A stretch of DNA of 64,000 bases from Azolla caroliniana. Taxonomy: Eukaryota > Plantae > Polypodiophyta. Below the pieces are notes generated by a model, which was not told the origin of the DNA, did no database searches, and worked only from the letters and a program-made list of their open reading frames with translations. Numbering within the stretch: position 1 is the stretch's first letter; each line of letters starts with the position of its first letter. The DNA is taken from positions 16,306,001-16,370,000 of the forward strand of contig JBHGNT010000002.1 of NCBI GenBank assembly GCA_043228905.1. Reading direction: 5' to 3'. The position numbers and the translations under genes were made by a program. Positions 308 to 25,053 of this stretch are shown here, one piece after another.

Positions 308-332
308 GGGTGAAAGCATGAGAGTGGAAACA
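308..332 (+). repeat. left terminal inverted repeat
   Basis: Pairs with 9277-9301 at 23/25; followed by the TAGCTAATTAGCTA motif at ~352-365. Confidence 0.85.
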
Positions 333-673
333 ATTAGCTATGTCCTTGACATAGCTAATTAGCTATGCAAAAAGCTACCATTGATAAATAGTCATTTTAG
401 TAAAAAGCCATCATTAATAAATTAACTATGCAAAAAACTATCATTGAAAATACTAGAGTGTTTTAATTACATATGTAAATGAGTGCCATAAATGTGCAAC
501 ATAAACGTGCAACATAAATTGATATGTGCACCATAAATGTGTACCATAAATTATATATCAAATTCTTAGGTCCATTATGCATGATCCTTTGCCACATCAT
601 GTAGGCCATCTCTAGTTGAGTATTGTGTGTTAGTTGCTACCACTGTTGCTAAACCCTATCGAGTCCACCTGCC

Positions 674-1034
674 GCCACTCTACACTCAAGGGCCGCTATT
701 GTGCGTTCCAAGCATCATCAAAGAGCTGTTCAATCTGACGGGGTTCTCTTCTCTGTGCCACTCTACACTCAGGGGCCGCTACTGTGCGTTCCAAGCATCA
801 TCAAAGAGCTGTTCAATCTAACGGGGTTCTCTTCTCTGTGCCACTCTACACTCAGGGGCCGCTACTGTGCGTTCCAAGCATCATCAAAGAGCTGTTCAAT
901 CTAACGGGGTTCTCTTCTCTGTGCCACTCTACACTCAGGGGCCGCTACTGTGCGTTCCAAGCATCATCAAAGAGCTGTTCAATCTGACGGGGTTCTCTTC
1001 TCTGTGCCACTCTACACTCAGGGGCCGCTACTGT
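674..1034. repeat. 83-bp tandem repeat, ~4.3 near-identical copies
   Basis: CCACTCTACACTCA recurs at 675, 758, 841, 924 and 1007, which explains the repeated small ORFs in the track. Confidence 0.95.
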
Positions 1035-1327
1035 CCAGTCTTGGATTGCTTCCACATTTCGATTTGACGGAGTTCACTCATCCAACGACAACATTCTACA
1101 CTCAATTGTCACCATTGGTAGGTCCTGGATCACCTCCTCAACTGTTCGATCCAACGGAGTGAACTCCTCTACTGTTCGGTCTTGGATTGCAATAACTTTT
1201 TTGTCTATTGATTATCTTGTGTATTGTTGTGTCTAATCTTGTGTATTGTGGAATATTTTTGTGTATTGTTGTTGCCCATAGCCATCTTAAATTTTATTTT
1301 ATTTTTCTGGAAATTTAGGGTTTTAAT

Positions 1328-4300
1328 ATGTCCAGCCAAATGGAAGGGGAAGAAGGGTGTTTAGAATTACCCCTCAATGATCATAAGGATAGGGATGATG
1401 CTATCAGGACACAACAAGCCATACGAAACTATTGGGCAGAAAAAAAAGGAAACATCGTCAATTGTTGAAGGATACGAAAGCCACACTTAGTAAAGGTAAG
1501 GATAGTTTAGCTGAGAATGTAAGTAATGTGACTACCATCATAGAGAGAAAGGTTGTAGACTATTTCAATGTTCAAACCAAGCACATCAACAATGAAAAAA
1601 AGAAGGTAGTACTTTATGGAATATGTAATGATCCATCGATAAAGGACTTAGTTGATTGTGATGGTCTTAATGCAAACATATCATTTGTTTTAGTAAATAA
1701 TCTTCATAATAGTTTCATATCCATGAGCCGGTTAGAAGATGATCTTGTCTTAAAAAGGTCTAGTCTAATGATGTTACTTAATAGTGATGTTGACGATATA
1801 AACATCAGTGAGCTATCTAAGGTAATTGGTGTTAGTAGAAAAACAGTGTACAATACAATGAACCGTATAATTTCCTCGAGTGAAGGAACTAGTCTACTAA
1901 AGCTAACTACAAGATGTAAGCCAATGACACCCATAACATTTGAAATCAAGGATGTAATCACAATGTTTTGGACTAATGAGAGTAGGGTTTCACCCAATAA
2001 AAAGGATTTATGCAGGAAACGTGTTGGAAGAAATCAATACGAGGAGCATCCCATTCATCTTCTTGATGTACCTCAAGTATTTACATTTATCTCAACATTT
2101 GTTTTGACTCTACACGGAAAGTTAATTAGCTCAGTTAGCAGAAAAGCTAATTAGCTTATCAGTTACATTTACCTCAGTTAGCTACTAGGATAGCTACTAC
2201 ATAAGTAACTGGCTACTCTCAATAGCTACTACCATGATAGCTAATTAGCTATTCTCAATAGCTAATTTAGTTACTACCACATAATTAGCTACCAAAATAG
2301 CTAACTAGCTACCATGATAGCTAACTAGCTACCAGGACAGCTAATTAGCTACTAGGATAGCTAATTTCGTTATTACCAACTAATTAGCTACTAGGAAAGC
2401 TAATTAGCTACCATGATAGCTAATTAGCTACTAGGACAGCTAATTAGCCACCATGATAGCTAATTAGCTACTAGACTAGCTAATTAGCTACCATGATAAC
2501 TAATTAGTTACTAGGAAAGCTAATTAGCTACCATGATAGCTAATTAGCTACTAGGACAGCTAATTAGCCACCATGATAGCTAATTAGCTACCATGAGAGC
2601 TAATTAGCTACTAGGACAACTAATTAGCTACCATGACAGCTACTTAGCTACTAGGACAGCTAATTAGCTACCATGGTAGCTACTTAGCTACTAGGATAGC
2701 TAATTAGCTACCATGATAGCTAATTAGCTACTAGGATAGCTAATTAGCTACCATGATAGCTAATTAGCTACTAGGACAACTAATTAGCTACCATGATAGC
2801 TAATTAGCTACTAGAACAGCTAATTAGCTACTAGAACAACTAATTAGCTACTAGGATAGCTAATTAGCTACTAGGATAGTTAGCTAGTTACGAGAATAAC
2901 TAATTCCCCTTTATTACGCAGGTCGATTTATCCATGAGTTATTTATTAGATTCAATATTGTGTCCGAGAGAAACTGACGTTATCTTCCATATTCATAAAT
3001 GTGTCATGGGTTTATGTCAAGATTGTGGTCCTACTAGATTTAGGTGGTGTCCAAATGAATTGAGTAGTGAAATATTGATCTTTGTGAAGTTATTTGAGTC
3101 AGTGAACACCAATTTCGAAGGAAAGGTGTGTAAAAGAAAGGATCTAGTTCGGAAGATGCTTAAACCAAGGGATTTGGTGCCTCTGTTTGTAGTATCTCTA
3201 GGAAAGTTCATTAAACACAACTTCATTTATTCATGGCAGGCCCATCCGTTTAAGACTTGCATATCTGATTTCCCAAATGATGTAGTAGTCTTAGTAGTAG
3301 ATTTCGCAGAGAATTATACTTTCAAGCAGTAGAATGAAATTCAATCTATGCATTGGTGTTCAGTTCAGGTAACCATTTTTGTGCACATAACATATTTTCG
3401 AGTTTCAGGTGATGTTAAAAAAGTAATTCATTTCTTTATTTCTGATGATAAGAAGCATGATACCTTGTTCGTCCAACACTGTTTTAAGTTACATTGGCAG
3501 TGGTTATTAGCTCAACATTACTCAACATTGGGTCTGGTCTGACGGAGCTGCGTCACATCCTACTATAACAAGTTTGGAGATGAGATGGAATTTTTTTGGG
3601 TCTGGCCATGGTAAAGGTGAACATGATGGTGGAGGGGTTGTTATAAAGCGGGCACTTACCCATGAACAACTAAAGACAGATGGTGTGCACATGAATTGTG
3701 CATCACATGTAGTTGAATTTTTAAGAACAAATATGTCAACGAGTGCAACAAGTGTTTATTCCTCGCAAGACCGAGATATCAAACGTGAATTTTGGGAAGT
3801 GAAGATAGATGAAGTAAATAGGGAGAAGACTTGGGAGTGCCAAGGAATTCCCGAATTGTGATCTCTGCATGCTGTTCGCGGTTATTCCAGGTTGGATGGT
3901 CATTGTATTGCGGTTAGAGAATTGACTTGTTTTTGCTTCCAGTGTGTGCAGGGAAATTGGAGATATTGTCTAAACAAAGCATACATTCAAAATTGGGAGT
4001 ATCACACTCTGAATGGTAAGGAAGCAGTTGATGGAGAAACAGGGCAGAATGCTGACTTCACATATGAGGGACTTGGAGATACTTTGAGTGATGTCATGAA
4101 CGTTGGGGATAACTTCGTTGTAAATGCTGAAGAAGGCCATTCAGAGGGTGTTGATTTCTATATATTGAAGTGCACGGTTAGTAAACAGTGTGCAAGGCAG
4201 AATATTGTAGATGCATGGGGAAATTTTGTATCTGCCGGGACATCCTACATCGAAGGCATTTTTTATGCAAAACTAGATGATTACGAATATGTGTACAGGC

Positions 4301-4452
4301 TGTTAGAAGACAAACCAACGGCGTACATGTACTCTCATTTGGTCAGGTGCATCAACGTCCCAATGTCAGAATACAATAGCTGCTCAGGTTTATACACTGT
4401 TGGTGCTAATGTGTATGAATGTATTTACAATAGTATGCCATGGAATTTGTAG
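1328..4452 (+). pseudogene. Sola-like DDD transposase, spliced and disrupted
   Basis: ATG at 1328 with a frameshift in the A-run near 1440. Phase-0 GT..AG intron 2077-2921. Motifs VDFAENYTF, EIQSMHW, ISDDKKHD, WSDGAAS, RWNFFGSGHGKGEHDGGG..IKR and C-terminal CFCxxC. In-frame stops (3330, 3859) and apparent internal deletions. Confidence 0.75.
2124..2905. repeat. intronic array of palindrome TAGCTAATTAGCTA, 20-bp period
   Basis: About 25 regular units at 2381-2880 with 6-bp spacers mostly CCATGA or CTAGGA; degenerate units upstream. Confidence 0.95.
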
Positions 4453-6576
4453 CTACAAGTAGCAATTACCATGTTCTCTTGTAAAACAAACATGTATTTC
4501 GCGAAAACAGTTAAATAATTTTGTTTGAGAATCAATTTCTTGTATACAGTCTGCTTTTTGTGCTTCTTTCTCAATAAAATCATGTCTTTTTTGTTAAGTT
4601 TTAAGTTATAAGTTATAGTGAAATAGTCATCAATAGCTAATTAGTTGTACAAATGCAGCTAATTAGCTGTCAATAGCTAAATAGTCATCAATAGCATGAA
4701 ATCAACAATCTGCAACATATTCCTCAAATTACACAGTAGATAAGTACAGTGGGAACAATTAATTAAATTCTTCATTGAATAATGTCATCTCTTTACATAT
4801 TTATAAATTACCATTGGAAATGTCTACAAATCTCCTATAAACAGCTAAGCTCTTGCTAATCAGTGGAATGAGTCTACATATATTATCCACATATCGAGCT
4901 CGGTATGGAGTCCACAACCATGCACCTAGTTGGCAGCTCACTGTTTGCACCAGGTACTGTTCAGGTATTTCCTCGGGTAGAATGAGACAGCATCTCCGAA
5001 TATTGAAGTAGTGCCAGAAATGTTCTGTATCCAAAATCAATGTGTTGTCGGCATTATATTCAGGCCAAGTAGCCCAAAAATCAAAAAGTCCTTGAATCTT
5101 GCAGCTTCCATTTGCTCACAATTTTCTCATGCCCATTGACCTTTAAAATGACTTCGCAATTTTGGGAAGAATCTTGCTAAACACTTCCACACATCTGATT
5201 TTGGTTTTTCACTCCAAATAAACAAATCAAAGTATTGCACAACCCACTCTAGAAACTGATTCGCGTCCCTCCTTGGCTGCATATATCTCACACTCATCAA
5301 GACTTTATCAAGCTCCAAGATCAAGGCTCTTCTTTCGACTTCTAGTGGTTTAGGTTTCCATTCCTGAAACTGAGCCGCTATTACACCATTTTCTGGTAGG
5401 ACACGATCAATCTCAATCAGCTCAGGTTCAGCCGACACAACTGGCGTCCTTTTCCTCTTCAAACCCCTAGTCGACTGTGTTGGGCCTGGCTTCACATTCT
5501 GGTGCTCTTGTTTTGTCGACTTAGTTATCAATCCTTGAATTACCTCAGTGCATGTAGCTACTGATCTGCTCGATATCAGTCCACTGGTATCACATGTTGC
5601 ATTTACCTGCAACACCAAGTCATCCGTGCAACATGCTTGATCAACTTGTGTGACCAGATCACTTGTGTCAGTTGCTACATCTACTTTCAAGATGGGGCCC
5701 TTTAAACACGCCGCAACATCAACAGTAGCCACACTGCCATTGGCCTTACGAGCAATAGAATCAAACCCTTTAGACTCTGCAACATCAGAAAACACCAACA
5801 TATTCACACTCACAAAGTAACTAACAGTCTCACAAAACAACATCCTGAACATCAAAGAGTTTCAGTCATAGAACAACACTCTTCAAATTATCTTGGAAAA
5901 ACATCATAGAGTTCCATTACATAATGTGGATCAAGCAACAACCAATCTGAGGTTTTACTTGTCCAACAGGATAGTAAAACTTCATAAAACCCTAGCAAAA
6001 TCCCTAAGCTAACAATCATATCCAACTAAACAGTATTTTGCTCCACTACGTCTGGGCCCCTTGACCGAGTAACTGGTCTTGTTCCCGATCGTGACCCCTT
6101 CTTCAGCCTTTTTCTGGTCGGTTCCCCATTTAGCCTTGCTTCTTTCACCCAATGTGCAAGTGTGTCCTCCTCCGACAACCTTCCCATCGCCTCAGCAGCT
6201 AATTGCACATCAGCCATTTCTTGAACTAGCTTTTCAAGTACAGAGGGATCTGTTTGGACATTTTCAGTAGTTGGGCTCGGTGGGGTGGAATCAAGGTCTT
6301 GAGATTCGAAGAAATGTTGCATCAAGTGTTCATAAACACTGTTGTTGTGAACCTCAGTTTTACATGTTGTTTCCACTATTTCATGGCATTTCACATCGTT
6401 GCCTAATTCAGTACATTGTTCCAAAAGAATAGGGTGGAGCTGATCTAAAGGAGATGTGATAGCAGGACTCTTACTTTCAGCCACGTTGGCAGCAGTATCC
6501 TCATCTGTTACAGCGTCATCAGCACCAGACACACCATGTGTCGTCCTTAATCCACAAGATTCTACAATAACATGGC

Positions 6577-7030
6577 AGCTATTTAGGATAGCTAATTAGC
6601 TACTTTACTAAACTATGGTAGAAGCTAGGATAGCTAATTAGCTAGTACGATAGCTAATTAGGATAGCTAATTAGCTAGTACGATAGCTAATTAGCTACTT
6701 TACTCAACTATGGTAGTAGCTAGGATAGCTAATTAGCTACTTTACACAACTATGGTATTAGCTAATTAGCTATGAGTAGCTAATTAGCTAGTAGCTAACT
6801 AGCTACCAGTAGCTAACTAGCTGCCAGTAGGATAACTAATTAGCTAGTAGCTAACTAGCTGCCACTTAGCTAATTAACTACTGTAGTAAACTATGGCAGT
6901 AGCTAATTAGCAAATAGGATAGCTTCTTTAATTAACTATGGTAGTAGCTAATTAGCTACAACGATAGCAGCAAAATAGTTTCCATACTTTTTACGGCTTA
7001 GCTAATTAGAAAAGACTAAGCTTATTAGCT
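6577..7030. repeat. second intronic array of AGCTAATTAGCT palindromes
   Basis: Many copies inside the predicted cargo intron 6563-7045. Confidence 0.9.
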
Positions 7031-8419
7031 ACAGTATGGTATACCTGTTAGTTTTCTCCACTCATTTGGTAGAGTTGTACTGCAATCTCCCAAACAGAAT
7101 GCAGCAATTCGACAGGCATGTTGAAAACAAAGCAGATGGTATGTGTGGTTGCATGGTTGTAGGTGAACCAACAAATACGCAGTTTTGTCCTCCACACCTA
7201 ACCTGCAAGCGATGCAACGTGCTTGAACTGTCAATAAATCATTTTTTGGTTCTCCTTCATTTGGTAAGGGAGCAAGAATGTTTAGGTCCAAATCCTGTCT
7301 GGTCCTTACCATTCCCTCCACAAAATGTAGCTGCTTCTTAAGGCAGCTAACTACCTGTTCTTGATGAATGTATTGTTCCTTCAACACAACAGAGAAATTT
7401 ACCGATTAATTATTCTTGTCTGAGAAAGATACACCAACTTTGCTCAGGAATCGTTAACTTACTTGAAGCTTTTCCAAATTGTAATCTGCAACAGTATTTA
7501 CACCTAGAAAGTCCAGGTTCATTGAAAGAACCTGGAACTCTATTTGCAGTTGTATTTTGCGTTGGGGATCCAGTGGCCCCTCTAATTCAAGCTCCTGTTG
7601 CGCAACCTATTCCAGATAATGCTTGATTAGCACATTTTACCCTTAAAGTTATTTATAACACAATCACATACCAGCAAAACAATAGTTACCTGAATCTTAT
7701 TTCTAATCATTGTAACAACGGAAGTAACTTTGCTCTCCATTGCAGAAGCCATTGTGGCTTTCTCTAAATCAGTCTTAAAAAATGCCAATGTCTCACAGGC
7801 TTCATGGACATTTTTTAGCATATAGCTAACCAATGTCTCACCTGTATCATCGACATTGGCTTTCCTTGGCTGTCGGTGTGGTGTATGCCCCCGGTTTTGC
7901 TGGGAGTCGGCAGTTGCATCAACAGCTGCCATGCTCCAAAATCTGTCTATTTTTTGTGCCAAGGTCCCCATCTTTCGACATCTTTTTACCGATGCCTCAC
8001 CATAGACTGCCCAAGCTACCCTATACATTTCAAGGTCTCTAGATTCCTTCACTGTTTTGCAGTACTCATATGCAAATGCTCTAGCAAATGAAACTGACAA
8101 CTCATTGTTGACTGGGATCTCCTGATGAACTTTCTAGTGCAGCCTCATGCAGTCATCGTACAAGTCGGCTCGTACATGCTTCAGCTTGACCTTGCCTTTG
8201 ACTCTAGGCACTGTATATATTGCCATCCAGTCTACATCACTGATCAATTTATCAGTTAGGACAGTAGTGTCAACACCCTCGAGTGACAGACCATAAGTGT
8301 TGTGGAAGTCCTCCTTTGTCTCGCAAAATTTTGCGAAGTTTAGCACTCTCGGATACGCAGGAACGAGCCATCTGAAATATCATTTCAAAAATCAGAAATA
8401 GTGCAAAATCAGAATATGT

Positions 8420-8775
8420 CAAAATCAGAAACCCCAATCAACAACAACAGAAATAGTGCAAAATCTTTAACTTAGCAAATTAGAAACCCTAATCATAATT
8501 TGTATTCAGAAATTTGAAATCAGAAACCCTAATCAAAATCTGTAATCAAAAGTTTGAAATTAGAAACCCTAATCAAAATCTGTAATTAGAAGTTTGTAAC
8601 CAAAAACCCTATTCAGAAATTCTAATCAGAAATTTATAATCAAAAACCCTAATCAGAAATTTCAATCAGAAACCCTAATCAGAAATTTCAATCACAAACC
8701 CTAATGAGAAATTCTAATCAGAAATTTATAAACAAAAACCCTAATCAGAAATTTCAATCAGAAACCCCAATCATC
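8420..8775. repeat. telo-box-like AAACCCTAATCAGAAAT degenerate tandem array
   Basis: About 10 AAACCCTAA(T)-type motifs inside the predicted cargo intron 8372-8818. Confidence 0.85.
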
Positions 8776-9276
8776 ATTAAAGACAGGATTAAACACAAAA
8801 AAAGTAATATAAACACACCTAATGCTACTCCCCGATCTGCGAGACATCCTTGTATGGGACTCCAAGGACTTCGCCCTATTCGATTTTGGGGAAATATGAA
8901 TCAGCACCAAAGTTCAGACAGTAGTCAAAAAGAAAAAACAAATGTTTGGGGTTTCTGTAACTGAAACATACCTGGATGATGATCGAGCCGGTTCTGTGTT
9001 GTAGCTCTCAATCTGCAATGTCGATTTTCTACTGCTGCGGGAGCTACGTCTGCGTTCATGCTCTGAGTACTCCATCTGCGTTCAAAATCAAACTTAGGCT
9101 AAACAAGAAATTGATGACATTGAAGTCGACCTTAGATGAAGTCTGAAACAAAAGTTCAAATATTTGAGTTTTTTCATAAATTAGTTTTTCAAATATTTGA
9201 TTTTCCCACAAAAAAGACTAGTTAAACAAATAGTTAATTAGCTATGGCCATTTTAGTAGCTAATTAGCTATAATAG

Positions 9277-9301
9277 TGTTTCCACTCGCATGCTTTTACC
9301 C
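9277..9301 (-). repeat. right terminal inverted repeat
   Basis: Pairs with 308-332; preceded by TAGCTAATTAGCTA at ~9257-9270. Confidence 0.85.
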
Positions 9302-10596
9302 TTATACTTTTAACAATTAATGGAAAAAAGAAATTTAATAATTTTCATTCATAAAGGAAAAGAAATTACAATATGTCCCAAGATTGGGATTCAGAAGTTT
9401 TAGGTTTACTAAGATTAATAAAAAAGAAAAATTAGAGGTTTTGAGAGATATGGCTTCCGTAGGGAAAATTAGGGTTTATGGCTTCCGTAAGGAAATTTAG
9501 GGTTTTTGGCTTCATTAAGGAAATTTAGGGTTTTTGAGTGTTATGGCTTTGATAAGATAAGAGAGCTAAGAAGGAAAATAAAAATAAAAATTGAGAGAGA
9601 GAATGAGAGTAGGAAAAAAAAATGAAATTTTATATGGAGTTCTCCGTTGATCATAGCCTTCAATGTTACTTTGCATGCCCACTTTTAGTTGCATGGCCTC
9701 TACTTTTAGTTGCATCCATTTTTAGTTGCATGGCTTTTTCTTTTAGTTGCATGCGACCGTCCACATGACCTTTACTTTAGTTTTCTTTACTTTACTTTAA
9801 TTAGCCACATGATCCTATCATCTGTCTGTCTCGATCGTCACCCATCAAATCCGTCTGGTCCGCGTCCAGCCTCGTCCGGTCGCCGGTTTCGCTCGATCGC
9901 CGGTTGTCAGATCCGCCCGATTTCCGACATCATCTGATTGTCGATTTCACCAATTCCGATTTGCTTACCGATCGGTTCTTGTTTGCTTCCCGACCGGTTC
10001 CGGTTTGCTTTCCGGTTGGTTCCAGTTTGCTTTCCAACCGGTTCCGATTTGCTTACCAACTGGTTCTAATTTTCTTTCTGGCCGGTTCCAGTTTGCTTAC
10101 TGACCGGTTCCGAATTGCTTAACAACCGGTTCCAGTTTGCTTACCAGTCAGTTCCAGTTCCATTACCAACTGATTCCATTTTATTGCCAATCGGTTTTTG
10201 GGAACTTGGCCACATTCATCCATCTAGACAAAGTGGCCAAAGTGCTCTTAACACAAATAAAAAATGAGGGATCTCAATGTGCTTATATAGCTAGGGCCTT
10301 AAGTTTCCTATCTATGTGGGATACTTCAAAATTCTATTTTCCCTATTTTCTCATGCTTCATGTCCACCTAACTTGATATGTAGTTGTCTATTTTGTATAT
10401 AGTAAAATGCGTTTGAAACTCTTGAGTACATCCATATTTCTATAACAAGCTACTAATCTAATCTAAAATAATTATTTCATTATTTTTCTACATAGTTTTC
10501 ATATCGTGTGTGAAAAACCACACGACATTCACCCCCACCAAACCTGCACATCCACCGGTATGTGCCAATTGCAGTGAGGTTCCTCTTTTGAATTTT

Positions 10597-13199
10597 CTAC
10601 TTCATCGATGTTTCTTCTTTATACTCGAACCGTTGTTGCCATCCGATCCACCATATTCTTCGTTCACTCTTTGAATTTCCATGACTGGTTGCCATGGCTC
10701 CCTTTTCTCCTGTAGAGCGTAATGTTTCATGCTTTGTGCATGTGCCACCTTCATCTCGACCATCTCCTTGGTCATCTAACTTTCTTTTATCATTCTTTCT
10801 TGTTCCATGCATGCCTTTCGAAGACCTTATAGAAATACTATTCTTGAGTACTCTTAGCGATTCATTTTTTAGCGGCATGCTCTCCTCTAGGTCCTTAAGT
10901 GACCACATCGCATGCTTCCCACTTTGTCCACTTTTGTGGTATACTCTCGTCTTGGAGTTGACTATGACTTCTACACTAGTATTATCCTTGTTAGATTTTG
11001 TGATCACATCTTTCATATCCGCTTAGCCCACTTGGCCCATATCTTTGCTTTTTGAGGTTTGCTTGGTCTCTTTGTCGCACACATTAGCTTTTGTCTTCGT
11101 GCTTTGCTTGACCTCTTTGTTACACGTATGGACTTTCGTCATTTTGCTTTGCTTTACGTCCTTGTTGCACACATTGGCTTTAACCCTTGCTTCCTCGCCG
11201 CCACCATCCTTCGCTTGGGTCTTACATAGGTTAATGCCCAAGTCTCTCAAACGAGTGTGGAGGAATTTTGTAGTTTGGCATTGCCTTTGTCGTGCTACCC
11301 TTAGCCATTTCCACCTTATGGTTGTCCACATTGGCTTTGACCTTTGTTTCTTTGCCGCCACCTTCCATCTCTTGGATCTTACATCGGTTAATGCCCAAGT
11401 CTCAAGAACTTTTGTGGGGAAAGTCTCTTCATGATCATCATCTACCCTCTTCATCTTGACGTCTCCTTCTTCTTCGCATGTGTTAGCCTCGGCCTTCACT
11501 TCCTCACCGTCACCTTCCGTCTCTTGGGTCTCACGTTTGCTTTCCGACGTTGTTGAGTGGCGCGTGACACACATGCCAAACGTCGGAATGTGTGCGTCAC
11601 AAGCGCGGACAAGCACCGGGCCTCTATCCACTAGTGGTTATGGATTATGGGCGGCTGAAGTGACGCACTAATGTGGTTAGAGTGAGAGAGAGAGAGAGAG
11701 AAACAAAATTTGAGGAAGTTTTTAAGATAGATAGGTAGATATATACACATCACCAATAAGATAACTAAGTATTCTTATTATTAATTTTCGATTTGATACA
11801 TAGATTGATTCATAGATTGTTTGATTCATCCATTGATTGATCCCCCCCCCCCCCCATTACACAAGCCTTACAAGGGTTTTAATAGGTTTATCTATCCTTC
11901 TAACATGCACAAAACCATGGGCTTGAACCCATGGTTTTCGGGCACACGGTTTTCCTTGTGGCATGCACAAAACCATAGGCTAAAACCATGGTTTTGTGTA
12001 CACGGTTTTGTATGTTTGTTTCCTATGGAATACTAAATATGAGAAGGAAATATACAAAATCTAAAGCACTTAGTAATAGCTTTAGTGGTAAGATAATTGC
12101 TTCCTATCTTAGAAGTGCAAGGTTCAAATCTTGCTTGCACCCTTTTATATGCACTTGAATGTCATCAGATCCTAGGTTAATTTTCATATTTATAATCATG
12201 TGTATAATGTGTGTGGAGCCACACTATTTCACAATTTCTCCCATTGGACACAGAACATCATGACAACGCATTTGCCCAAGTCTCTAGAACAAGTGTGGAG
12301 AAACTCTTGACACGGCCATCCGCCATTGACTCGTCCATAGACACCTCTGACTCGATGTCGTTTTTCGTGGCTATCTCCTCAATCATGTCGGCCTCACATT
12401 TTTTATCTCCCTTGATCATGCAAGCTTTGGTCATGCTTGCACCTTTATCACTTGATGTTGCAGATATGATACGTGTTTCGAAACATTTGTCTTCGCTTGA
12501 AGTGGCATTCGCCACCCTCGATTCATTTGTTTCATTCTTCTCCATTGTTTCTTTGCAAGACGAGAAGGTGTCTTCTTCCACACCTTCTTCCATGGTGTTG
12601 TCATACCGAACTTGGGCCTTCGTATTGGCCATATCATCACTCCACCTTTGTTGGGAGGTCTCTTCTTCTTTGATAACCATTTTAATTGGTTTTGGTTCCA
12701 TTATAAGATTCTCTTTGGCCTCGACTTGCACCTTTAAATTCTCATATGCCTCGTTTATGAAGGCCTCTATGTCGAGTACCATCGAACCTTCCTTCTTCAA
12801 GCTCTCTTCTTTAGGTGGTAGTTTGTAGTTGCTTCCCATCCTCCTTTCACCATCCGTCATGGGTTGTATTGTTGCCGATGAGAATCTTGTCTTCCTCTTA
12901 TCGTGCAGTTGACATACTCTTTCCACGTTCGTCCAATCCTTGGTGAGGCCATTTGCACCATCATCATCCTCAAGTCGGATTCCAATGGCCTTCCTTTCCT
13001 TCCGATCGATTGACTTCACGAACATTAGGACTTTATCCACCCCCACCAATCTTTGATCCCGCTCCGAGAGTTGTGCAAAGCGACACTCAAACTCAACGAA
13101 AGCATGCATGGCACTTTGGTGGGTCTTTAATGATGATACCCATTGGTCGAACTCGTATAGTTTGCATCTCTTCGGCTCTTTGTATCTATATGCCTCCAT
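10597..13199 (-). pseudogene. gag-like ORF with low-complexity tail, interrupted by a solo LTR and a stop
   Basis: ORF pieces 12258-13199, 11023-11550 and 10597-11016 are colinear with the intact 665-aa ORF at 41376-43373 (FAQLSERD..DKVLMFVKSID..DDDGANGLT; RIWWIGW). Confidence 0.75.
11551..12265 (-). mobile_element. solo LTR (715 bp)
   Basis: TGTTG...TGACA termini. TSD ACGT/ACGC. Removing it restores the host ORF. Shares blocks with 16506-17134. Confidence 0.75.
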
Positions 13200-16158
13200 G
13201 AGATATCCTCCTACCGCCTCGTTTCACGTCGGGTTCACCAAAGATGTTGCGAAAATACGACGAGGATACGTGAACTTGAGGCAGGACTCCGGGGCCCCCG
13301 ACCAGAGGATATCACATTTGTGCGTTTATATTTTTAACAATTAACGGAAATAACAAATTTAATAATTTTCATTAACAAAGGAAACGAAATTACAATATGT
13401 CCCAAGATTGGGATTCAGAAGTTTTAGGTTTACTGAGATTAATAGAAAAGGAAAATTAGGGGTTTTGAGAGATATGACTTCCGTAAGGAAAATTAGGGTT
13501 TTTGGCTTCCGTAAGGAAATTAGGGTTTATGAGAGATATGGCTTTCGTAAGGAAAATTAGGGTTTATGACTTCCGTAAGGAAATTTAGGGTTTATGAGAG
13601 TTATGGCTTCCATAAGATAAGAGAGCTAAGAAGGAAAAGAAAATAAAAATATATGGAGAGACAGAGTGAGTGTAGGAAAAAAAAAATATGGAGTTCCCCG
13701 TTGATCATAGCCTTCTATGTTACTTTGCATGTCCACTTTTAGTTGCATCCATTTTTAGTTGCATGGCTTTTTCTTTTAGTTGCATTGCTTTTTCTTTTAG
13801 TTGCATGCGACCGTCCACATGACCTTTACTTTAGTTTTCTTTACTTTACTTTAATTAGCCACATGATCCTATCATCTGTCCGTCTCGATCGCCGCCCATC
13901 CAATCTGTCTAGTCCGCGTCCAGCCTTGTCCAGTCGCCGATTCCGCCCGATCACCGGTTCCGTCCGATCGCCGGTTTTCGGATCCACTCGATTTCCGACA
14001 CTATCTGATTGTTGATTTCGTCGGGTCCGATTTGCTTACCGGTCGGTTCCTGTTTGCTTCCCGACCGGTTCTAGTTTGCTTATCATCCGATTCCAAATTG
14101 CTTACCGACCGGTTTCGGTTTGCTTACCGGCAGGTTCCAGATTGCTTACCGACCGATTCCGGTTTGCTTTCCAGCCAGTTCCAGTTTGCTTACCAGCTAG
14201 TTCCAGTTCCATTACCGGCCAGTTCCATTTTATTGCCAATCGGTTTTTGGGAACTTGGCCACATTCATCCATCTAGACAAAGTGGCCAAAGTGCTCTTAG
14301 CACAAATGAAAAATGAGGTATCTCAATGTGATTATATAGCTAGGGCCTTAAGTTTCGTATGTATGTGGGATACTTCAAAATTCTATTTTCCCTATCTTCT
14401 CAAGCTTCATGTCCACCTAACTTGATATGTAGTTGTCTATTTTGTATGTAGTAAAATGCGTTTTGAAACTCTTGAGTACATCCATATTTCTATAACAAGC
14501 TACTAATCTAATCTAAAATAATTATTTCATTATTTTTCTACATAGTTTTCATATCGTGTGTGAAAAACCACACGACATTCACCCCCACCAAACCACACGA
14601 CAGCGTGGTCGCCTGTGGCGCGTTGTGCAGGACGTTTGGAGGTGGGTCCCGACGACGATTGTCGTTCTGTCGTCGATTGTTCCGCGAACCTCTATAAAAT
14701 TTCTTCTATCGGTTCGTGAATACCGTTGATCGTACCGGTTATCCCAGTCGTCGTCATATTGATCATACTCATCATTTGTTCTATATTGGTCGTCGTGGTA
14801 CTGGTCATGGCGGTCATCTGATCTCATGCGATTGTCGCGGCGGTAACGGTCATCATTACGTCGATAGTCGTCGTCGCGGCGCTGGCTACCCAGAGATCGT
14901 GGTCGCTTGTTTGCCCGATGTCGGTATGACTGACGTTCATCCTGCCAAGAGTATGTATTGTGAAGCTCGATCTGGCAAACCGGAGTCGTCGTTGTGCGGT
15001 TGAGCATGTTGTACTCACATTGTTCGATCGTGTGAGCTCGGGACTGACATATTGGGCAGTGTGGCCAGTGAGGGCACTCGAGAGCCAGATGGCCTGAGCC
15101 TGAGCAAGCCGTGCATTGGAGGGCTTGTCGGAAACGATTGTCCTCCTGAGGAAGGGAGCTTTGCAAAGAGTCCATGGAGAAAGTCGTGTTATGTTCGGTC
15201 CTAGCGATGGCGAGGACACGTGCGATGACTTGCTCAATGGTCTAGTTCGAGAAATTGGTAAGTGCGAGAGTCGTCCGTAGAGGCTCCCGTAGGCTGGACA
15301 GGAAAGTATCCGGAATGTGATGGGCGGAGACATCGTTGGCCAGTTGTCGGTAGAGATCTTGAAACCGGATCGTGAACTGGGCGACCGTCTCGTGAGGTTC
15401 TTGGCTCATGGAAAAGAACTACTGGAGTAGTTCACGCTTCGGAACTTGGCGGTGAAATAATTCTGGAAACTTTGTGCGGACATCCTAAAACGTGTGACCT
15501 CCCCCATGTCGAGGCGGGAGTATCATCGAGCAATCGTGCCATCGAGGGATAAAGCGAACTCCGCGATTTTGGAGGACTCGATTGTTGGGAATATGTCCCT
15601 CCTGTGGGAGGATGATCCGACTGTTCAGAAAGCCAACAGTCAAAGAGTCAGAAAACAAGAGCCGAGTTGATGAGGAACGGTCGAGGCCGAAACCGGAATT
15701 GTGTAAATGGCCAACTCGGGAGACTATATTTGTAAATAGTCTTAGTGTGCGCCCCATAAGGGCTACGTATGTAAATAACCAGAAGGTTGCATAAGTATAT
15801 ATGCAACTAGGGCAAACATGTTGTGAGAGATGCAGGAGTAGAAGTAAAACGACTGTGAGAGAGAGACAGAAGAAGCGTGAGCTGCGCCATAGCTGTGTTG
15901 TAAGAGCCCTTCGTGGTTGTTACACTCGATAGAGTGTTGTAACCTTCTCGGTGGTGTATATCCACTATTTGTATAGTGAAGCTCTGTTCCCGTGGTTTTC
16001 CCCATTTTAGGGTTTCCACGTAAATCTCTGTGTATAGTCGTCTATCTTGTCTTTCTCACATTTTGAGTGTGATTCGTATTTCAACGCGTAGTTCAATTAT
16101 TGTGATTAATTCCGCAACGATTTCTCAACAAACTGGTATCAAAGCTTGAGGTGCAAGC

Positions 16159-19100
16159 ATGGAAGGAGGTGTGAGCGGATTCCCAGGTATGATAGTTCTG
16201 AACTCTCAGAACTATGCAGACTAGAAGATAAAGATGGAAGACCTTCTCATAGTCAAAGATCTGTACAAGCCAGTCGACAGAGCACAAATACCTAGGGGGG
16301 TATTGGAGTCGGACTGGAAGCTTCTGAATAGGAAGGCGGTGGCCACAATCCGACAATGTGTCGATGTAAGTGTCCTTCAGCATGTGGCGAACGACACGAA
16401 TGCCCACGAGATGTGGCAGAAGCTGTCGGGTCTGTATGAGAGGAAGAACGTGGTAAAGAGAACCTCGCTAATGAGAAAAATCGTACGATTGAAATACGGA
16501 GACGGTGTCGCGAAGATTCGTGTGTGCGTGTGCTACTCGAGCGACCACCAGGGTCTTGGCCTGGGGAGGATGTTTGCAGAATTATCGAAGAGATGACGAT
16601 CAATGTAAGATTAGATGAAATTTGTTTACTTGAGAAGAAGAAAGATTGTACACTTGAGAAGTAGAAAAATATGAAGAAGATAAAGACAAATATAATTATA
16701 TTGATGATATGGTGTTGGTGATATCACATATTGAGCCCCCCTTACACAAGCCTAACTAGAGGCTTTTATAGGTCTTTCCATGCTTGTGACATGCACAAAA
16801 CCATGGGCTAAAACCATGGTTTTGTGCACACGGTTTTGCTTATGTCATGCACAAGCCATGGTTTTGTGCACATGGTTTTCTATGGTTGCTTCATATATAA
16901 TTCGTATATGAAAAGGAAATACATACAACATACACTATATGGTAGTTGTCTTAGTGGTAAGGCAATCATCTTGTATCTTAGAGGTGCAAGGTTCAAACCT
17001 TGCTTGCACCCCTCTGTATGAACTCAAGTGCCACTAGGCCTTAGGCTTATTTGCTAAGTGTATGTGCAATGTTGCACATCCTTGGTTTATTCGTCTCACT
17101 CGGTTTCACACCGTAGCCGAAAATCGTCATGACAACGGTGAGAGCATTGTCGAACACATCAGCACGTTCATGGGGTATGTAAATCAACTTGCTGCGATCA
17201 AGTTTCCCCTGGATGACGCAATGCAGGCCATCCTGCTGATGTGTACCCTGCCGAAAAGCTAGGAGAACCTGGTGGTTACTCTCAGCACCTCTTGTCAAGA
17301 AGAGAACTTGTCTTTAGAGACGGTGAAGACAAGCATCCTAAACAAGGACACAAGGAGGAAAGACAAAGGGGTCTTGTCCCAAACGGAGTCGAATCTGACT
17401 CAACACATGGACAGAGGAAGGGACCAGCGAAGAAGAAGTCCACAGCGAACGGACAGATCCCATGCCAGATCGAAGTCCAGAGGTAAGCCTGTGTGCTTCT
17501 ATTGCGGAAAACCTGGACACTTCCAGAAGGACTGTCGACACCTGAGAAAAGACAAGAGCATCGGAAATAATGTCGAACCCCGGAAAATTCCGGATGAAAA
17601 GAACACTTCGGCCATTGCTACGAGCAATGAGGAACTTCTGTTCATATGTGAACAAACAAGTGCAAATCTTGCAAGTGAAGAGTGCACTTGGGTGATCGAC
17701 TCTGGCGCATCCTTTCACATTACTCCATCGAGAGAGTATTTCTCGACTTACATAACCGGGGATCATGGCTATGTAAAGATGGGTGATAGTGGAGAGTGCA
17801 AGATAACCGGGGTCGGAAGTGTGTGCTTAATGACGTCGACAGGGTGTCGACTAACGTTGAAGGATGTTCGACACGTCCCAGATATCAGATTGAATCTGAT
17901 ATCGACTGGAAGGCTTGACGACGAAGGCTACAGTGGTAGTTTTCGGAATGGCAAGTGGAAGTTCTGCCGAGGAAATCTCATAGTGGCCCGAGCTCAGAAA
18001 GAAGGCACATTGTACATGATGCATGCCCGACTATGCAAATCAGAAGTAAACATGGCAGCCGACTCGGCAGAGGAGATATGGCATAAGAGGCTAGGCCACA
18101 TGAGCGAGAAGGGAATGCACCTGTTAGCCGACCAGGAACTTCTATCAGAAGTCAAGGGAGTGCACCTGGAGAAGTGTGTCGACTGCTTAGCCGAAAAGCT
18201 GAATAGGACGGCATTCCACACGAGACCACCGAGGAGAAGAGAAGTTGCACTGGAACTAGTGCACACTGATGTGTGCTATGTGGATGCTCCATCGCATCGA
18301 GGAGGATAGTACTTTGTAATGTTTATTGACAACCATAGTCGGAAGACATGGGCCTTCGTACTGAAGACGAAGGATCAAGTATTGTCGGTTTTCAAGGAGT
18401 TCCAGGCAAGAACCAAAAGAGAGTCGGGCCGGAAACTGAAGGTTGTCCGAACTGACAATGGTGGTGAGTACAAAGGGCAATTTGAGGAATACTGCAAGTG
18501 CCAAGGTATTCGAATCGAATACACAGTGGCAAAGACCCCAGAGTTGAACGAGCTTGCAGAGAGGATGAATCAAACAATCATGGAGAGAGTAAGGAGCATG
18601 CTCTCCCATGCAAAATTACCAAAATCCTATTGGGTCGAGGCGATGTACACAGTTGTTTATCTGATCAACAGGTCTCCCTCAGTGCCATTAAAGGGTGATG
18701 TCCCACAAAGGGTGTGGATAGGGAAGGATGTCTCCTACCAACACTTGAGGGTGTTCGGATGTTTGGCGTATATGCATGTACCAAAGGATCAGAGGTCAAA
18801 GCTCGACAGCAAGTCGAAAGCATGCATATTCATGGGATACTTGAAAGATGAATTCGGCTACAGGTTGTGGGATTTAGTCGACACAAAGGTAGTGAGAAGT
18901 CGGGATGTCATCTTTCTTGAAGATAAGACAATTGAAGACTGGAAGCAACAGAAGTCGGAATCGACTCCCCAGTCAACCTCGACTACCATCGACTTAAGGC
19001 CAAGTGAGTCGTTACTGATAGCTGTAAGGAGACAGTTGGCCGACAGAGCCTAATCCGAGTTGGTCGACTCAGAAAGACCGATAGACTATGAGTCAGAGTC

Positions 19101-20855
19101 TGCAGATCTGCTAAAATCAATTGAGGAATATGAGTTGGAGTTGTCCAACCTGGAGATGTCGATTGATGAGCAGAATCCCGAGCAAAGAGAAGAGTTGGCA
19201 GAGACATCTGAAAAAGAGCCAACAACGAGTGGACGAAGGTACCCACTCAGAGAAAGGAAGGTGCCGATTACATATGCCAGTCAATACATCCTCTTGACTG
19301 ATGACGGTGAACCGGAGTGCTATGAAGAAGCCATTGCCGACGAGAGTAGAGAAAAATGGTTGAACGCGATGCAAGAGGAGATGGAATCCTTGCACGCGAA
19401 TTACACCTACAACCTAGTAGAGCTGCCAAAAGGTAAGAGAGCACTCAGGAATAAATGGGTCTACAAGGTCAAGACTGGAGAAGTCGACAGAAAGCGCAGG
19501 TATAAAGCCCGCATAGTGGTGAAGGGTTTCCAACAGAGGAAGGGCGTCGACTTTGACGAAATATTCACACCAATCGTGAAGATGAAATTGATTCGAACTA
19601 TTCTGAGCATAGCGACCAGCATGGATCTGGAGATCGAACGGTTGGATGTCAAAACTGCATTTCTACACGGGGAGCTAGAAGAAGAAATCTACATGTAGCA
19701 ACCCGAAGGCTTTGAGGAGAAAGGGAAAGAGAACCTGGTGTGTCGACTGAGGAAAAGCTTGTACGGACTGAAACAAGCTCCATGCCAATGGTACAAGAAA
19801 TTCGAGTCCTTCATGATGGAACATCGGTTCCAGATAACACAGGCTGCTCACTGTGTGTTCGTCAAAAGGTACGAGGAAGGAGATTTCTTGATTCTCTTGC
19901 TATATGTTGATGATATGTTGATAGTCAGCCAAGATGCAAGGAAGATTGGAAGCTTGAAGAAAGCTCTCGGCAAATCATTTGCCATGAAAGACCTTGGACC
20001 AGCAAAGCAAATCCTAGGAATGCACATAACCCGAGACAGAGCTCGGAAGGTGCTATGGTTGCCACAACAAAAGTATGTGACGAAGATCCTAGAGAGGTTC
20101 AACATGTCAAACGCAAAGCCGGTCGGCTCAATGTTGTCGACAAATTGCAGACTAAATGCGACGCAGTGTCCGAAAGGGTAGAAGGAAAACGTTGACATGA
20201 AGAAGGTACCATATGCCTCGGCCGTCGGTAGTTTAATGTATGATATGGTCTGTATGAGACCAGACATAGCATTTGTTGTGGGAGCAGTAAGCCGATATAT
20301 GAGTAATCCAGGGAGAGAACACTGGGCAGCAGTGAAGTGGATACTCAGGTACTTAAAGGGCACCTCAGGTGTGTGCCTAAGGTATGGTGTCGAAAAACCT
20401 ATGCTAGAAGGTTTTACCGATTTGGACATGTCATGAGATGTTCACTCGAGCAGATCCACGTCAGGGTACGTGATGACCTACGCAGGGGGAGCAGTGTCGT
20501 GGCAGTCACGACTGCAGAAGTCTGTAGCCTTGTCGACTACAGAGGCAGAGTATATGGCAGCAGTAGAGGCCGGAAAAGAGCTGATCTGGATGAGAAATTT
20601 TCTCACCGAATTAGGCATGAAGCAAATGGAGTTCTTGCTTCATTGTGACAGCCAAAGCGCCATACACCTAGCCAAGAATGCGGCATATCACTCCCGAACC
20701 AAGCACATATAGAGAAGATATCACTGGTTACGAGAGAGAGTTGAAGAAGGAGAGTTTTCTCTCGAAAAGATCCATACTAATGCAATGGATCCGACATGCT
20801 GACGAAGAACCTACCTATGGACAGACTCAAAGTCTGTCGACAAAATACAAGACTG
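16159..20855 (+). pseudogene. copia gag-pol (gag, CCHC, PR, IN, RT, RNase H)
   Basis: CFYCGKPGHFQKDC; WVIDSGASFH; WHKRLGH; VRTDNGGEY; LYVDDMLI; STTEAEY; multiple in-frame stops. Confidence 0.95.
16506..17134 (-). mobile_element. solo LTR (629 bp) in copia gag
   Basis: TGTCGCG...CATGACA termini. Perfect 4-bp TSD ACGG. Removing it restores gag KYGDGESIVEH. Confidence 0.9.
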
Positions 20856-22387: not shown

Positions 22388-25053
22388 ATGTTTCTTAGGA
22401 TTTTCAAATTTTTACTGTAAATTTATCAAGAATTATTCAAACATTGTGATGCCTCTCACAGAGCTTACACGAAAAAACAAGTCATTCACATGGAGTTCTA
22501 GTGCAACCAAAGCTTTTGAAAACCTAAAGAGCGCATTCACTTCTGCTCCAATTCTACTTCATGCTGACCTAGAAAAACCATTTATCATTGAGGTGGATGC
22601 ATCTGATTTTGCACTAGGAAGTATCTTGTCATAGACAGGAGATGATGGGAAGCTACATCCAATTGCTTTCTATTCACGCAAATTCGAAGCCGTAGAGATC
22701 AATTACGAGATTCACGACAAAGAGCTTCTAGCCATTATAGACTCGTTTGAACAGTGGAGGCATTTCTTAGAAGGTTCTCCCCACCAAATCATTGTTTACA
22801 ATGATCATAAAAACCTCACATACTTTCAAAGTGCTAGAGTCTTGAGTCGCCGCCAAGCTCGTTGGGCACAGTTTCTAACGCGTTTTGACTTTGTCATCAC
22901 ATATCGCCCAGGAGTACAACAAGGAAAGGCAGATGCTCTCTCACGACGATCTTATTTGGCTCCACAACCAGGAGAACCCACATTTGATCATCAAAAACAA
23001 ATCATCTTGGGGCCTAATCGGTTACGACTATTAACTATTAATGCCTCTCAAGCATTTGAAGATTCAAGTCTTCTTGATTCAATCCGAACAGATATCATTT
23101 CTGATGAATTTGCTCAAGATATATTGAATCATATAATTTCAGATCGTGTTTCTTCTTCAAGCTCCAAGAATCCTCGTAAAGATTATAACTAATTTAAATG
23201 GGATAATGGTTTACTTTTTCGCAACACTCTTTTGTATGTCCCAAATGGTTTGTCTTGACTTCAAGTAATGCGATATTGTCACGACAACCCAATGGTCGGG
23301 CACTTTGGAATCCACAAAACTTTGGAGCTAGTTTCTCGAAACTATTGGTGGCCTCACCTTCGAGAGTTTGTTGAAGATTATGTTCGTAGTTGTGATGTGT
23401 GTTGTCGGTCAAAGATTCCACAACATCAACCATATGGGTTATTACAACCATTGCCAATTCCTATTGGTCCATGGAAATCCATCTCGATGGATTTTATTAT
23501 AGATCTTCCAATTTCGAAGAGTTTTGATGTTGTTCTCACTATAGTAGATCGATTCACAAAGATGGCGCATTTTCTTCCATGCACGAAAACCATCAACAGT
23601 AAAGAAACTGTAGACATCGTTATGAAAGAAGTATTTCGGCTTCATGGTCTTCCAGATGACATCATTAGTGATCGTGGCTCACAATTCATCTCAAAATTCT
23701 GGAAACACTTGCTTGAGATGCTCAAAATTTCCTGTAAACTTTCGTCAATCTATCATCCACAAAGTGACGATCAAACCGAGCGGATGAATCAAACATTAGA
23801 GCAATATCTTCGGTGTTTCATCAATTACCAAAAGGATGATTGGGTGGATTTTTGCACTTTGCAGAGGTTGCATACAATAATTCAGTTCATTCCTCAACAG
23901 GGTATACTCCATTTTTTGCAAACATAGGATATCATCCTCGTTGGACAATGATGGCACATCCAGAAATCTCAAAAAATCCTGTTGTTGAAGATCGTCTACG
24001 TCAACTACAAGACATGCGTGTTGCACTTTCTCAACATTTGCAAACTACTCAAGCCACACACAAAAAAGCCACAGATCGTCACCGTCTCGACTCTTCACCA
24101 AAGGAACCAAAGTTTCAAATTGGGGATCGTGTATGGTTACTACGACGTAATGTGAAGACTACTAGACCTTGTGACAAGTTGGATTATCAACGACTTGGTC
24201 CATTTATTATCTCCAATCAGATTAATGATGCTGCATTTTGCCTTGATCTACCTCCACAAATGCATCTACATCCGGTATTTCATGTTTCATTGTTGGAACC
24301 CTACATTGGTAGTTCCATTCCAAATCGGGTTGTTCTAGCCCCACCTCCAGTTCAACTTGTTAATGGCCCAAAATTTGAAGTCAAAGCTATTTTGGACTCC
24401 AAGATAATACGTAAAAAGCTTTATTATCTCGTGGATTGGTTAGGGCATACACCAAATGATCGTACTTGGGAGCCAGCTGAGAACCTTGATAATGCCTCTG
24501 ACTTGGTGGCTGAATTTCATCGCCAATATCCAGATAAGCCAAGTCTGAATTCATGCATTGCGACTCATGGAACTCGTCATCAAAGGAGGGGGATGGTGTC
24601 ATGTGTATACAAAACCCAATAAACTTTATGGTGATTTGAACCCATGACCTCCTCAAAGAAAGCATACAACCCCATCCATTAGGATACATCATATTGTATA
24701 TATTAAATAATAAATTCTACTATATCAATAGGAAATATATTTAATAATATTATTGAAATGTCACCACCTTGCATAGGCTAACACATGATTGCCATGGGGC
24801 ATGCTTGCATGAATGTCAAGTGGTGATCATGCGTGCCTATGAGGTGGCGAGCATGCATGTATCCAAACCATGCTATATAAACATGTATTTGACTATTGAT
24901 GAACCATTCTGGTTCAACGCCAGTCTTCAGCATATTCTTGTAAAAATTGCTCTCGTTGTTAATACATTATCAAATTCTTCTTATCTCTCTCATTATTTTC
25001 GTTTCTCATTCTCTTCTTCATTTTAAAACTCGTTCCTAACTTTGGCCCTGACA
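22388..25053 (+). mobile_element. chromoviral Ty3/gypsy 3' half (Tcn1-like): RNase H, integrase, chromodomain, 3' LTR
   Basis: IEVDASDFALG; YEIHDKELLAI; HxxxxxGH..CxxC; SDRGSQF; LGPF; chromodomain FEVKAILD..YLVDW..RTWEP. PPT 24582-24596. LTR 24597-25053 (TGTCA...TGACA). Confidence 0.92.

Follow-up and report, generated by a model that had tools for sequence, protein, structure and literature searches.

Family-specific motif arrays in a Sola2-like DNA transposon of Azolla caroliniana as candidate binding sites for an element-encoded protein

VANC showed that a transposon can evade silencing by means of a private protein-motif code. VANDAL elements are described as carrying family-specific tandem motif arrays in introns, intergenic and terminal DNA together with an accessory gene beside the transposase (PMC5735166, PMC10398659), and their motifs are gained, lost and replaced rapidly between related families. 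VANC21 binds introns, stretches between genes and non-coding DNA at the termini (PMC5735166). Here we describe a comparable layout in 64,000 nt of Azolla caroliniana DNA (assembly GCA_043228905.1, contig JBHGNT010000002.1, positions 16,306,001-16,370,000, forward strand; hereafter the window), where a decayed transposon with a Sola2-like transposase gene and a convergent second, accessory gene holds arrays of a 14-bp palindrome. The arrays are real, family-specific and repeated across related families. Our preferred reading, a tentative one, is that they form clusters of sites bound by the accessory protein; by analogy with VANC, this protein would tag copies of its own family and maintain their activity.

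The window element would work like the VANDAL/VANC system, but it is not a VANDAL: its transposase belongs to another group than the Mutator-like enzymes, and Pfam searches gave no match to DUF1985, DUF287 or PMD. VANDALs are Mutator-like whereas the window element is Sola2-like, and VANC contains DUF1985 and DUF287 whereas the window protein combines an uncharacterised domain, a RING-like finger and an NIF-like domain. VANC motifs stand in one orientation, unlike the palindromic motif of the window. Binding and demethylation have been shown for VANC, while for the accessory protein of the window both are putative. The array trait recurs in the near sister families but not clearly in 14 distant ones. 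It should be further pointed out that VANC structurally resembles MAIN/PMD (PMC13547354; bioRxiv 2024.09.27.615353), and that a 2026 atlas terms it dicot-specific (PMC13547354).

Clustered family-specific motifs with an element-encoded reader are also described for Spm TnpA and the AtMu1 transposase, both of which bind termini (bioRxiv 10.64898/2026.08.24.746577); their clusters are terminal, whereas most window sites are internal. Sola1-1_Ec32 of Ectocarpus (PMC12477816) carries an accessory gene on the opposite strand, for whose product binding and modification of the element itself have been proposed. That protein is a fusion of ParB and a DNA methyltransferase; no such fusion is present in the window element, and the main text of the paper does not contain the string "palindrom". 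The window element shares with Sola2 (PMC3627910) the blocks DFAENY..Q.EIQS.HW, ISDD..HD, SDGA..Q.K and W.FF..GHGK...DG.GG.IKR, short terminal inverted repeats (TIRs) and an inclination towards carrying a further gene, which in amoebozoan Sola2 is Fanzor1. It differs in being part of a plant lineage with a long motif-filled intron and a convergent accessory gene, and the window copy is without the 4-bp target duplication. A literature search, with most subscription papers outside its coverage, returned no description of this plant Sola2 lineage or its arrays.

Motif arrays in the window and its sister families

The palindrome, of the TAGCTAATTAGCTA type found in the window and in locus L001, was scanned at up to two mismatches. 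It gave 51 matches (22 exact), whereas 100 shuffles gave a mean of 0.24 and a maximum of 2. All 51 lie between 352 and 9270, and the remaining 54.7 kb of the window are free of such matches. The transposase intron (2077-2921) holds 30 of them and one intron of the second gene (6589-7031) another 16; two are found in the gap between the two 3' ends (4634 and 4656), one at the left end of the element (352), two at the right end (9231 and 9257), and none in exons. The placement of the motif just inside both TIRs, between the 3' ends and in two arrays, as reported in an earlier note on this DNA, is thus confirmed.

The array in the transposase intron is regular, with 25 in-register 20-bp units at 2377-2876. 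Its 24 spacers comprise 13 of CTAG type and 11 of CCAT type, and the alternation that had been described holds in 20 of 23 steps. Between the two arrays the core is conserved while the spacers differ. Spacings in the second array range from 15 to 54 bp, so the 20-bp period is restricted to the transposase intron. As spacings vary among arrays and among families, helical phasing was rejected, and with it the proposal that the sites lie about two helical turns apart. The second array itself stands as claimed, in one intron of the second gene only; the 448-bp intron at 8375-8822 has no motif. The arrays are indeed confined to non-coding DNA, but this confinement was rejected as evidence for function: the 14-mer has stop codons in all six frames, and its exclusion from exons is therefore forced. 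Avoidance of methylation was considered as well and is not supported, as CG is low in the arrays (2.7% and 4.9% of cytosines) but fairly low in exon 1 too (7.5%).

Sister loci were taken as the best 80 of 295 (595 kb), forming 40 families at 80% identity with the window included. Within these 595 kb the 14-mer has 23 matches at up to one mismatch, 22 in L001 and one in L010, which supports a restriction of the motif to this family and its closest relatives; the L010 copy is an exact 14-mer in an intron at 69% protein identity. Motif tests were run on the 20-22 families that have a transposase intron plus DNA past the stop codon, by learning a motif from the transposase intron alone and scoring it beyond the stop codon of the same family. 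The near set consists of the window's clade (tree support 1.0) and the L026 group, eight families with 42-61% identity to L001. These eight families carry seven motif types:

TAGCTAATTAGCTA: window and L001
TACCATTAA: L002
TGGTAATTAGTA: L003
ATGCTA-N2-TAGCAT: L005
AGTACCAA: L006 and L007
AGGTGAAA: L008
ATTAGTACTAAT: L026

The intron-learned motif recurs past the family's own stop codon in 6/8 near families when the top three 8-mers are used and in 7/8 with the top ten, and 7-mers recur strongly in six and weakly in one. The p-values of these recurrence tests overstate the case, since tandem copies are not independent. Motifs of other families mostly score 0 past the stop, except for L006 against L007 and AT-rich look-alikes. 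Counts in transposase coding DNA are 0-2. Four of five loci have their own motif within 110 bp of the left end (p 0.0005-0.016), L079 being the one that fails; in the window's left end a single L002 8-mer and a single L003 8-mer are present as well. The check for different motifs in sister families, which the earlier note had named, turned out positive, and these motifs occupy equivalent kinds of location. The earlier interpretation as a whole keeps its family-specific motif and the different sister motifs, and loses both helical spacing and the argument from non-coding confinement.

Inverted half-site pairs exceed all 50 shuffles in 6/12 array regions versus 1/13 other tandem repeats, and are not above shuffles in L002, L003, L006, L009, L015 and L079. 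The palindromic form is therefore common, not general.

Two further loci are described here as side observations. L040/L041, of a distant family, have an array of the palindromic TGCCATGTGGCA in the second-gene region (16240-20120) that is absent from the transposase intron and may belong to a nested element. In L079, CAAGTA/TACTTG is frequent in the transposase intron (4460-5590) and reversed in the second-gene region (10750-11300), and was borderline in the tests.

Array growth, selection and host factors

The pattern recurs with seven motifs, each of them common to a family's intron and downstream DNA and, where available, to its end, and this makes it probable that the arrays are selected binding sites for an element-encoded protein. 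The two window arrays share flanks in one orientation, and L001 departs from the window in how long its array is and how the units are ordered, so tandem duplication and copying between regions clearly appear to build the arrays. In the mechanism that we propose, the site would be multiplied by these two processes, introns and gaps would tolerate it, and selection would keep the motif that is read by the family's protein.

Passive minisatellite growth is an unlikely alternative to such selection. Terminal sequence would be copied into introns by slippage or gap repair and would survive where stops are harmless. The shared same-orientation flanks are a sign of copying, and between the window and L001 the intron is 84.5% identical and the exon 96.3%, with 158 gap columns. 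The motif-free repeats, the stop codons and the polymorphic gap cluster described next fit this alternative. Like the family results that follow them, they weigh against the accessory-protein reading, as do some features of the two proteins given further below. Tandem repeats without the motif occur in the transposase leader (674-1034), in the 448-bp intron (8477-8773) and downstream of L021 and L044, and the stop codons of the 14-mer in all three frames of both strands would by themselves keep it out of exons. The cluster in the 3'-3' gap is polymorphic: some copies skip it, with joints from 4518 to 4692/4696 in X2, X11 and X14 and loss of 4519-4695. L008 fails the downstream test each time, its motif being found in the intron and at the left end. 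The close relatives L004, L021 and L044 (86, 75 and 67% identity) have no motif downstream of the stop and carry other repeats there. Among the distant families, many of them old and decayed (12 in the three-8-mer test, 14 in the 7-mer test), no clear shared array was found, the best p being 0.01-0.03 in three. L012 and L015 have open frames for both transposase and N-terminal domain, yet L012 is without an intron array and the array of L015 does not recur.

On the other hand, passive growth accounts poorly for a pattern that is repeated with seven different motifs, each common to separate regions and an end of its own family. The exact 14-mer moreover survives in the intron of L010, despite the divergence of the encoded protein, and the repeat units of L002, L006 and L008 are long, each with several copies of the motif within it, instead of consisting of the motif itself.

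Recruitment of a host transcription or chromatin factor by the arrays is very improbable. It would fit the eight teloboxes (AAACCCTA) in one intron, the telobox being bound by host TRB proteins (bioRxiv 2024.09.27.615353), but host-factor specificities should not turn over from family to family within related hosts, where seven motif types are seen. The telobox is also found in L014 (2003-2315, eight shorter matches), and teloboxes cluster in LTR-like (long terminal repeat-like) repeats too.

Contigs of four DNA runs under four organism codes, and of X20, a run guessed to be RNA, were compared with the window. Joints in X1 and X2 link the arrays (2747/2874 to 6664/6666) and could reflect recombination deletions between arrays or mis-laid repeats. 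Array depth is 2-8 times exon depth; it is inflated by repeats and hence was not used. The 83-bp leader repeat at 674-1034 (4.3 copies, 98% identical, without the motif) has low depth in X11 and X14 and is a recent, lineage-limited expansion. As expected of a plant repeat, the 14-mer tandem pair had no matches in viral and prokaryote contigs.

The two genes and the candidate reader

The transposase gene is laid out as follows:

1328-2076, plus strand: transposase exon 1, with a frameshift in an A-run near 1439 and a helix-turn-helix at about 1765-1869
2077-2921, plus strand: transposase intron (GT..AG) with the first array, 25 in-register 20-bp units at 2377-2876
2922-4452, plus strand: transposase exon 2, broken, lacking 264 bp after 2930 and short stretches near 3516 and 3557, with stops at 3330 and 3859, relative to P0005/L001 and contigs

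The conserved blocks match the published Sola2 alignment by eye (PMC3627910 Additional file 10), and on these blocks the plus-strand gene is assigned to a Sola2-type DDD transposase. Its core had no match to any Pfam family, nor to any Mutator-like element (MULE) family. There are 21 longer relatives, the named ones coming from Calypogeia fissa and Klebsormidium nitens. The intron is secure because relatives without it (L052, L061 and P0024) read straight through.

The second gene, on the opposite strand, comprises the following parts:

4801-5861, minus strand: NIF/FCP1-like phosphatase-fold C-terminal region, broken; first Asp motif ELDKV; weak Pfam NIF match (E=0.022)
6026-6561, minus strand: low-complexity middle exon with predicted borders
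6562-7044, minus strand: intron with the second array (6589-7031); predicted GT..AG, alternative acceptor at 6579
7045-7405, minus strand: RING-like zinc finger exon (Pfam zf-RING_2 E=0.043; profile match 3.9e-9)
7689-8374, minus strand: uncharacterised folded N-terminal domain of about 150 amino acids plus a long helix; one in-frame stop at 8134-8136; 136 relatives; predicted local distance difference test score (pLDDT) 90
8375-8822, minus strand: 5' intron without the 14-mer; eight telobox copies at 8484-8736; joint 8374 to 8823 in X20

Three joints in X20 fit minus-strand introns at the 5' end of this gene, and neither array intron is bridged there. The borders of the second-array intron were taken from the reading frame and splice signals because no spliced contig spans it. 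The two runs that are likely RNA gave little cover and no joint over both array introns, which is evidence neither way.

A profile built from L012/L015 showed that eight distant families have a related N-terminal domain, again downstream and on the opposite strand, and it matched the window's N-terminal domain with an HHalign probability of 97.5. Because this domain recurs in eight distant families, the second gene is a long-kept accessory gene and not chance cargo. The order of N-terminal domain, RING and NIF recurs in P0161 and P0220. Pfam NIF scores above cut-off in these two and in L005 and L008, with the NIF part of the latter two in the same position; for L002 and L003 no NIF match was obtained from the 3' sequence available for the second gene. 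The N-terminal part is missing from most near-family contigs. NIF/FCP1 phosphatases have a catalytic DxDxT/V motif. The first Asp motif reads ELDKV in the window, DLNGL in L005 and DLNGV in L008, none of which is DxDxT/V, and the NIF-like domain is likely a fold relative that is inactive. As an observation on its own, exon-intron units are repeated in tandem in the second gene of L003 (7770-8892), a feature also reported for VANC genes.

Which of the two proteins would read the motif was weighed as well. The transposase itself could do so with its N-terminal helix-turn-helix, the motif being its own subterminal site and the internal arrays serving to concentrate the enzyme or to self-regulate expression; we consider this rather unlikely, though a serious competitor. 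It is consistent with the placement of the motif, which stands at fixed distances of 25-71 bp from each end and, in L002, L003 and L008, close to the left end. One X20 contig joins 370 to 9264, which suggests a form like a miniature inverted-repeat transposable element (MITE) that keeps only the ends. Besides, motif binding and activation of cognate copies are within the reach of a transposase on its own (bioRxiv 2026.08.24.746577). Compared with the core, exon 1 changes more quickly (47/42/30% against 59/61/48%), so the transposase appears to have a fast-evolving, weakly scored helix-turn-helix region of its own, which also counts against a role for the accessory protein. In exon 1 Pfam HTH_11 reaches E=1.2e-4, under the curated cut-off, and weak matches occur in 4/5 sister exon-1 sequences; that all of them are below Pfam cut-offs speaks against this reader. 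L002 and L003 have almost identical putative recognition helices but different arrays, although TACCA is present in both arrays. Furthermore, 46/51 sites lie at least 1.8 kb from the ends, whereas the published transposase and TnpA examples bind termini. A single-sequence model of exon 1 was unusable (pLDDT 34).

The internal position of most sites, as for VANC21, and the fixed outer TIR therefore favour the accessory protein over the transposase. The outer 13 bp of the TIR are nearly unchanged out to transposases that are 36-38% identical; since they stay fixed while the motif changes fast, the motif is not the cutting site. In the accessory-protein reading, the N-terminal domain would read DNA and the long helix behind it may dimerise, while the RING-like and likely inactive phosphatase-like domains may recruit host factors. 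Anti-silencing by the arrays is proposed by analogy with VANC.

The composition and relationships of the accessory protein are less favourable to that reading. Its N-terminal domain is not strongly basic (24 Lys+Arg, 21 Asp+Glu), and no sequence or fold link to VANC/PMD was found in Pfam, profile and fold searches. DUF1985 and DUF287 had no Pfam match in 16 proteins (E up to 10) or in 46 proteins (E up to 0.01). The accessory model, with a mean pLDDT of 90 for the N-terminal domain, gave no Foldseek match at E 0.001 in PDB or viral libraries. The fold lists were filled by the C-terminal long helix, and VANC21 (9LNK) is not among the matches listed, an absence that is compatible with a shared fold. 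PDB sequences searched by profile returned coiled coils or nothing. The only hint of a VANC/PMD link is an Atlas score of 0.88 to Transposase_28 clusters, below the 0.9 mark. An Atlas search of P0107 gave bacterial clusters without names, and for accessory proteins of full length, word-indexed searches returned 0 and 6 matches.

More broadly, it is conceivable, though doubtful, that Sola2 transposons in seed-free plants possess their own sequence-specific means of self-activation, built on an ancient accessory protein and at least seven family-specific motifs. The same view, held with equal reserve, would make the accessory protein an undescribed DNA-reading fold joined to a RING-like finger and a pseudophosphatase, with a target that drifted and was amplified in introns and ends. 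If true, this would extend VANC-like systems for the first time beyond the Mutator and Spm elements of flowering plants and supply a ready set of natural protein-motif pairs. Such a layout in a different superfamily and a different plant lineage would show the strategy to be a recurrent one. With their seven motif types, the eight families offer a direct test of the reader and of specificity shifts, and possibly a new programmable DNA-binding domain.

Ends, decay and surroundings of the window copy

The element and its ends are arranged as follows:

308-9301, no strand: Sola2-type DNA transposon by its transposase motifs; 8,994 bp, decayed, two convergent genes, 25-bp TIRs
308-332, plus strand: left TIR, outer 13 bp nearly invariant across families
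332-365, no strand: left subterminal block with a half-site, an inner ATGTC-N3-GACAT palindrome and a full 14-mer at 352-365
4634-4681, no strand: motif variants in the 3'-3' gap, from the motif scan; region skipped in a share of other copies
9231-9270, no strand: right subterminal motif pair, 9231-9244 and 9257-9270
9277-9301, minus strand: right TIR, from TIR comparison

Sola2 TIRs start with 5'-GRG. The two 25-bp TIRs are identical at 23/25 positions, and the start of the left one is also found in L002, L003 (two changes), L008 and L079, and at the right end of L028. The ATGTC-N3-GACAT palindrome lies about 33-45 bp from the left end and is kept in the window (332-360), L002 (84) and L003 (1817); its arms run into family-specific sequence.

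The window copy is dead: deletions, a frameshift and stop codons disrupt its transposase, and its second gene has stops too. It has no target-site duplication (flanks CTAG and TTAT), and no other locus has both ends. On its right it is flanked by an LTR-like repeat that occurs again at 13326-14349, while the left flank continues differently in other records. The window copy looks composite, because the left and right flanks belong to different repeats. The family is abundant, with 6,525-15,134 contigs along the element in each of the four DNA runs, and depth falls past the right end in X11 and X14. Besides the end-to-end joint, single X20 contigs join 1363 to 3774 and 3936 to 5161; together these joints suggest a MITE-like form of two ends plus a heavily deleted derivative.

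Downstream, direct repeats of about 1 kb (9302-10300 and 13326-14349, 81.5% identical) surround 3 kb of gag-like frames with no Pfam match, and 9302-14349 is likely a non-autonomous LTR element. The right end of the transposon lies a few bases inside the first of these repeats. Further along the window are a decayed copia-type pol (17263-20181), a chromodomain-bearing gypsy-type pol (22635-24622) and a copia-type reverse transcriptase (38494-39258). Two frames, 675 amino acids on the minus strand (41376-43403) and 607 amino acids on the plus strand (45857-47680), have no Pfam match and are gag-like by eye, the first of them resembling 12258-13223.

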